1,434 nucleotides of DNA. It comes from Escherichia coli (GTDB taxonomy: Bacteria > Pseudomonadota > Gammaproteobacteria > Enterobacterales > Enterobacteriaceae). Location of the stretch: assembly GCF_003334385.1 (NCBI RefSeq), contig NZ_QOWN01000112.1. One strand, 5' to 3'. A program made the translations under genes and the position numbers. Each line of letters starts with the position of its first letter. The first letter of the stretch is position 1. The notes below the pieces were generated by a model that was not told where the DNA came from, did no database searches, and saw only the letters and a program-made list of their open reading frames with translations. Below are positions 714 to 1,418 of the stretch, piece by piece.

Positions 714-1418
714 ATGCTCTCTCGACATATCAATTATTTTCTTGCCGTGGCTGAACATGGCAGCTTCACCCGTGCCGCCAGTGCGTTGCACGTCTCCCAA
801 CCTGCGCTTTCCCAGCAGATTCGCCAGTTAGAGGAGAGTTTAGGCGTGCCGCTGTTTGACCGTAGCGGGCGAACGATTCGTCTCACTGATGCAGGAGAAG
901 TCTGGCGACAGTACGCCAGCCGGGCGTTACAGGAACTGGGGGCGGGTAAACGGGCGATTCATGATGTTGCCGATCTGACGCGAGGATCGCTGCGTATCGC
1001 CGTCACCCCCACCTTTACGAGCTACTTTATCGGCCCCTTAATGGCGGATTTCTATGCGCGCTATCCCAGCATCACGCTCCAGCTACAGGAAATGTCGCAG
1101 GAGAAAATCGAGGATATGCTTTGCCGCGACGAGTTGGACGTTGGGATTGCCTTCGCGCCTGTGCATTCGCCGGAGCTGGAGGCAATTCCTTTACTGACAG
1201 AAAGTTTAGCGTTAGTCGTGGCGCAACATCATCCGCTGGCCGTCCATGAACAGGTGGCGTTGAGTCGCTTGCATGATGAAAAACTGGTCCTGCTCAGCGC
1301 GGAATTTGCCACCAGAGAGCAAATTGACCACTACTGCGAGAAAGCGGGGCTACATCCCATAAGCGCTAACTTAAGGGTTGAACCATCTGAAGAATGCGAC
1401 GCCTCGGTGCCTCGTTAA
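714..1418 (+). CDS. cynR: LysR-family transcriptional regulator CynR (cyn operon activator), 3'-truncated by the element junction (probable pseudogene). Native codons span 714-1358 (215 codons), followed by a 19-aa tail ([19 protein letters not shown]) and stop at 1416-1418 read from the element end.
   Basis: The translation from ATG 714, [50 protein letters not shown]..., is a typical LysR N-terminal helix-turn-helix and matches E. coli CynR as I recall it through ...[10 protein letters not shown]. The expected continuation is QVVIEANSISAV..., full length about 299 aa. An AGG lies 6-9 nt upstream of the ATG. The ORF-track start at 630 is an in-frame upstream extension that I reject. Confidence 0.88.

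Follow-up and report, generated by a model that had tools for sequence, protein, structure and literature searches.

Results

The window (the whole stretch of DNA analyzed here, 1434 nt) most probably carries two separate, mutually inverted insertions of IS186, each at a preferred target of this element, and positions 1346–1357 form the target side of the junction between cynR and the transposase-distal IS186 end; we put the probability of this reading at roughly 90%. The window consists of an IS186 end, a 1280-nt cyn segment, and a second IS186 end (Table 1). Throughout, the transposase-distal end of IS186 is named IRR and the transposase-proximal end IRL.

Table 1. Features of the 1434-nt window, with strand and basis of assignment.
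Feature	Position	Strand	Basis
IS186 copy, terminal 77 nt, transposase-distal end (IRR)	1..77	-	perfect reverse complement of 1358-1434
cynT' (carbonic anhydrase), codons 1-176 of 219	78..605	-	ORF list, annotation in relatives, translation
11-bp target duplication from the cynT insertion, single copy (GGCGATCCGCC)	78..88	.	reciprocal junction in SCU-104; L125
Target half-site GGGG-CGGATCG-CC at left IS tip, 7-nt spacer	78..90	-	sequence
cynT-cynR divergent intergenic region, intact	606..713	.	100% identical to K-12
cynR' (LysR-type activator of the cyn operon), codons 1-215 of 299	714..1357	+	ORF list, annotation in relatives
Target half-site GGGG-CTACAT-CC at right IS tip	1346..1357	+	matches consensus of 88 flanks
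10-bp target duplication from the cynR insertion, single copy (GGCTACATCC)	1348..1357	.	second copy in relatives
Second IS186 copy, terminal 77 nt, IRR, inverted	1358..1434	+	77/77 to K-12 IS186A end
23-bp terminal inverted repeat, common to both IS ends	1358-1380	+	sequence CATAAGCGCTAACTTAAGGGTTG

Structure of the window

The left IS186 tip (CATAAG... on the minus strand) points at the cyn segment, and the remainder of this copy lies beyond the left window edge; the remainder of the right copy lies beyond the right edge. The 23-bp repeat CATAAGCGCTAACTTAAGGGTTG is also present at positions 77–55 on the minus strand. Between the elements, positions 77–1357 are 100% identical to the cyn locus of Escherichia coli K-12 and to other E. 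coli.

Both truncated genes are read through into IS186. The cynT' frame continues for three residues (HKR) and then stops, while cynR', whose codon 215 takes its third base from IS186, acquires a 19-aa IS-encoded tail with a stop at 1416–1418. The fusion ORFs span 630–1418 on the plus strand (CynR 1–215 plus 19 aa) and 66–605 on the minus strand (CynT 1–176 plus HKR). Public databases carry both fusion proteins as ordinary "CynR" and "carbonic anhydrase," and 53 public contigs encode the exact 234-aa CynR' fusion protein. In the strain of origin, cynR and cynT are both inactivated, and the cyn operon is disrupted by both insertions.

The terminal inverted repeat of the window is perfect over 79 nt (1–79 versus 1356–1434) and comprises the 77 nt of IS plus a shared CC/GG. 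The window probably represents an entire short-read contig with repeats at its two ends. It resembles an edge of a de Bruijn graph with both ends in one repeat vertex, and a value of k = 79 would be consistent with the 79-nt shared end. Since the contig ends at repeat boundaries, the far flanks of both IS copies are missing from the window. In an exact look-up of the fusion proteins, limited to the longest contigs, those shorter than 2 kb accounted for 100 of the 140 blocks for CynT' and for 8 of the 103 blocks for CynR'. This surplus of short contigs for CynT' is probably due to the CynR' stop being located 61 nt inside the IS, which would be lost in small-k assemblies.

Identity of the inserted element

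The first-pass annotation of this DNA had ascribed both junctions to the same transposase, and the presence of one and the same element on both sides is borne out by the terminal 77-nt stretches, which are identical to each other and, at 77 of 77 positions, to the transposase-distal end of K-12 IS186A. The complete IS in the genome of E308, which has an identical right junction, is identical to K-12 IS186A over its entire length (1339/1339). IS186 is a 1339-bp element of the IS4 family, and the NCBI annotation lists it as "IS421 family." The 370-aa transposase encoded by the IS in relatives with an identical junction scored 133 bits against NF033592 (NCBIfam IS4; cut-off 115). Within the window itself, membership in IS186 is seen from the 23-bp terminal repeat, the sub-terminal identity, and the near-consensus target.

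Toxin loci of the hok/sok type directly adjoin IS186 both in K-12 (hokC/mokC/sokC; L144, 1752–2011) and in SCU-104 (a Hok/Gef family gene; L004, 5004–5156).

Geometry of the two junctions

At the right junction, the arrangement first described is confirmed in full: GGGG at 1346–1349 is followed by CTACAT at 1350–1355, CC at 1356–1357, and the IS tip, CATAAGCGC, from 1358. The left junction had been described as having the same geometry. This holds for the G run and for the CC at the tip but not for the spacer, which has 7 nt on the left (GGGG-CGGATCG-CC) and 6 nt on the right. A strictly identical geometry at both junctions (N7 versus N6) was therefore rejected. The 7-nt spacer on the left agrees with the 11-bp duplication found for that insertion, as opposed to 10 bp at cynR.

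The targets at both junctions are close to the IS186 consensus, and each site is one base off: the native cynR site reads GGGG-CTACAT-CCAC and the native cynT site reads GGGG-CGGATCG-CCCT, the latter with the 11-bp duplication GGCGGATCGCC. The codons expected beyond the cynR junction had been given slightly wrongly (CCC CAG); the native sequence is CAT CCA CAG GTG GTC.

Counting both strands, GGGG-N6-CC occurs once in the window, against 0.58 occurrences expected, so this count is not above chance. The informative feature is the position of the motif exactly at the IS tips and not the number of motifs.

Target preference of IS186

Metagenome contigs were scanned with the 23-nt terminal repeat of IS186, which yielded 88 distinct flanks at IS186 tips. 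In these flanks, G was present at positions −12, −11, −10, and −9 in 77, 82, 83, and 66 cases, respectively, and C was present at −2 and −1 in 79 and 85 cases. A tip-abutting GGGG-N6-CC was found in 46 of the 88 flanks, the N7 form in 20, and the N5 form in 16, where it should be noted that these classes overlap because G runs longer than four fall into more than one of them. The background frequency of GGGG-N6-CC is approximately 0.00027 per position and strand.

Sixteen distinct complete IS186 copies had a length of 1339 bp (1340 bp in one of them). A direct duplication was seen in eight, being 10 bp long in seven copies and 11 bp long in one, and always of the form GG-N6/7-CC. Eight of the 16 copies had unmatched flanks and no direct duplication (L021, L079, L083, L084, L094, L114, L002, and L004), which suggests frequent recombination between IS186 copies or, in the case of the metagenome contigs, assembly chimeras across the repeat.

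A weight matrix was derived from 83 metagenome flanks only, none of them from the cyn locus, and was run over the native 6-kb lacY–codA region. Among the 11,941 candidate positions, the cynR site ranked first and the cynT site ranked eighth.

An earlier consensus for the IS186 target, G≥4-N-C≥4, was reportedly given by SaiSree and colleagues in 2001. A later study describes the target as 5'-GGGG(N6/N7)CCCC-3', based on 41 N6 and 16 N7 sites (Lee et al. 2016, Nucleic Acids Res, PMC5009759), with some of the published sites being one or two bases off the consensus. Because the 88 flanks and this published rule show the same motif, the geometry at the tips is a general footprint of IS186. Hence, the arrangement that was flagged in the window is the ordinary footprint of IS186 target choice and is explained by the published specificity.

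CRISPR repeats of E. coli (...GCGCGGGGAAC...) also provide a GGGG half-site (L002, 1712–1738; L061, with flank CCCCGCTGGCGCGGGGAACTCATCC), and two independent IS186 insertions were seen at a repeat–spacer boundary.

The two insertions had further been described as orientation-specific, and this part of the first-pass annotation does not hold. Four complete genomes (RM14721, STEC367, LR-24, and CH459) carry IS186 in the reverse orientation at the identical cynR site and with the identical duplication, such that the end adjoining GGGGCTACATCC at this site is IRR in 10 genomes and IRL in 4. Among the surveyed flanks that bear the motif, the adjoining end was IRL in 36 cases and IRR in 31, and the survey contained 12 flanks that occurred next to both ends. 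Orientation specificity is thus ruled out by the reversed genomes together with the near-equal counts of the two ends.

The cynR insertion in other genomes

One way to check the right junction, put forward at the outset, was to recover the far flank of the element and look for a target duplication followed by the rest of cynR. Run on relatives, this check gave the expected result: in all 10 complete genomes that have the right junction, IRL is directly followed by GGCTACATCC-ACAGGTGGTC... and the rest of cynR. In each of these 10 E. coli genomes, the reciprocal junction lies 1339 bp, that is, one IS length, from the right junction. A second copy of GGCTACATCC directly after the IS was found in E308 and nine other complete genomes, and also in L134 and L136–L140. 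In the 10 genomes, cynR carries a simple insertion, for which the 10 bp GGCTACATCC have been duplicated.

Two of the other loci differ in detail. In L140 (10645–12088), the IS186 at this position of cynR exceeds the standard length of 1339 bp by about 105 bp, and the ORF for its transposase is broken into fragments. In L135 (10645–15134), the truncated cynR and IS186 are followed by an invasin-like gene (eaeH region) and by ykgR/rpmE2/rpmJ2, and the 3' part of cynR, codBA, and the prp genes are absent beyond the IS, although they are present after the IS in other loci. L135 likely reflects an IS186-associated secondary deletion or rearrangement beside the hot-spot insertion.

Insertions in cynR with the IRR orientation were found on three or more flank haplotypes, which differ by 0–4, 35–37, and 62–69 SNPs per 10 kb, and in further complete genomes with a cynR insertion, the flanks are only 98.5 to 99.3% identical to the window. 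Several haplotypes, taken together with the cases of opposite orientation, imply repeated independent insertions at the cynR site, which indicates that this site is a recurrent natural hot spot for IS186 in wild E. coli. The cynR site at codon 215 could even equal the lon promoter as a natural hot spot of IS186 that has so far gone unreported. A link between IS186 and cynR was not found in the literature searched. The one mildly new point is the recurrence of insertions at the cynR site among wild E. coli, with IS186 in either orientation and in several genetic backgrounds.

The cynT insertion in other genomes

The reciprocal junction predicted for the cynT insertion, consisting of the 3' part of cynT, GGCGATCCGCC, and IRL, has a 271-nt match of 100% identity in SCU-104, which is the only complete genome with either the left junction or its reciprocal. 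The 1.5-Mb contig L125 contains a simple cynT::IS186 insertion, with one 1339-bp IS, both copies of the 11-bp duplication, and an intact cynR. The same cynT junction next to an intact cynR was found on eight metagenome contigs, and the cynT::IS186 allele is present on 72 public contigs, mostly with an intact cynR.

In SCU-104 (NZ_CP053284.1), the two halves of cynT are separated by approximately 3 Mb, one being near 1.047 Mb and the other near 4.024 Mb. At one IS186, a CRISPR-repeat remnant next to iap is joined to the 5' part of cynT (L002, 1500–1740), and at the other IS186, the 3' part of cynT is joined to a hok/cysH flank (L004, 3644–5000). The outer flanks are non-reciprocal (GGGGAACACCCC versus GGTTTTACCCCC), which implies more than one IS186-mediated rearrangement. 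Later rearrangements are common, as seen from SCU-104 and from the foreign far flank in L135, and may also apply to the genome from which the window derives.

Two independent insertions were one of the two origins that the first-pass annotation had put forward for the paired junctions, and the relatives argue for this origin: each insertion exists alone with a matched duplication, the one in cynR in 10 complete genomes and the one in cynT in L125 and SCU-104.

Other origins of the double arrangement

The second origin put forward was a single IS186 insertion followed by replicative intramolecular transposition, with inversion, into the second site. This route predicts exactly what the borders of the window look like, namely the same IS end on both sides in inverted orientation, and the window alone fits it as well as it fits two insertions, given that recombination between inverted copies can flip the segment anyway. 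We nevertheless consider it very improbable. Characterized transposases of the IS4 family, such as those of IS10 and IS50, act by cut-and-paste and not replicatively, and the route would need a replicative mechanism unlike theirs; if it were true, IS186 would transpose replicatively and thereby differ from the characterized elements of its family. Moreover, each of the two insertions is also found by itself, flanked by an ordinary direct duplication, and the cynR site has been struck repeatedly in strains without an IS in cynT. A bias toward local hopping is also lacking for IS186 (PMC5009759). Local hopping as such, considered as the reason for two insertions 1.3 kb apart, was rejected on this ground and because cynR is struck in strains without a nearby IS.

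About equally improbable, in our judgment, is an assembly artefact, in which a mixture of a cynT::IS186 strain and a cynR::IS186 strain, or a chimeric contig, would have brought together two junctions that are present in no single genome. The window does look like a raw de Bruijn edge with its perfect 79-nt terminal inverted repeat, and the two junctions occur together in none of 5,426 complete genomes, the double arrangement being known only from the window. A mixture, however, would be expected to add an uninterrupted branch, so that the contig would break at the junction and not inside the IS, and two IS-bearing branches could hardly both be in the majority. In addition, each of the junction sequences is separately confirmed in finished genomes.

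Least probable of all is a functional composite transposon or a selected invertible cassette in place of two incidental insertions, because, despite the formal architecture of two inverted IS186 ends bracketing a 1280-bp segment, there is no selectable cargo inside but only two truncated genes and their promoters, the IS-bordered segment is found at no other location in the 5,426 genomes (none of which covers the whole window), and the target preference alone accounts for both borders.

Discussion

Our preferred reading, two separate IS186 insertions, can be described as the following course of events. The IS186 transposase would recognize the pseudo-palindromic sequence GGGG-N6/7-CCCC and make staggered cuts 10 or 11 bp apart, halfway through the G run and the C run. 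Repair would then duplicate GG-N6/7-CC and leave each IS tip beside ...GGGG-N6/7-CC. If the cuts indeed fall in the middle of the G and C runs, every tip will adjoin ...GGGG-N6/7-CC. The cut positions proposed here are those suggested by the duplications, and the proposed cleavage chemistry draws on family membership as well as on the duplications.

The genome would thus contain a pair of mutually inverted IS186 copies, both pointing the same end inward, around the 1280-bp cynT'–cynR' fragment. As to the order of events, the most likely course is that a lineage already carrying cynT::IS186 was struck a second time, in cynR, the strongest local target. Because a broken cynT would leave cynR no intact operon to activate, the second insertion was probably neutral. 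Recombination between the inverted copies could flip the 1280-bp remnant. For the genome of origin, the presumed state of the far flanks is that seen in the relatives.

The flagged feature is real but ordinary, and the underlying biology is already known. The window cleanly illustrates, in natural DNA, the published IS186 rule, with an N6 site (10-bp duplication) and an N7 site (11-bp duplication) side by side. It has little import beyond annotation, although it does explain the end points of the contig.

Among known systems, a close counterpart is K-12 IS186A (NC_000913.3, 15387–16731), which has the same terminal 77 nt as the window but a different chromosomal location. Its own 10-bp duplication, GGATCACTCC, lies within a perfect GGGG-ATCACT-CCCC, whereas the two cyn sites are one base off. 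The IS186 motif of Lee et al. 2016 concerns the same element and has the same N6 and N7 spacings, which are reproduced by the survey of 88 flanks. That study describes a 6–7-nt core as being duplicated, whereas we measured duplications of 10 and 11 bp (GG-N6/7-CC). At the lon promoter, new IS186 insertions arise at one position in both orientations (PMC3045373). The cynR site resembles this hot spot in that a single site is struck repeatedly in either orientation (10 versus 4 genomes). The two differ in that the lon-promoter insertions were selected, at another locus, whereas the cynR insertions have no known selective phenotype.
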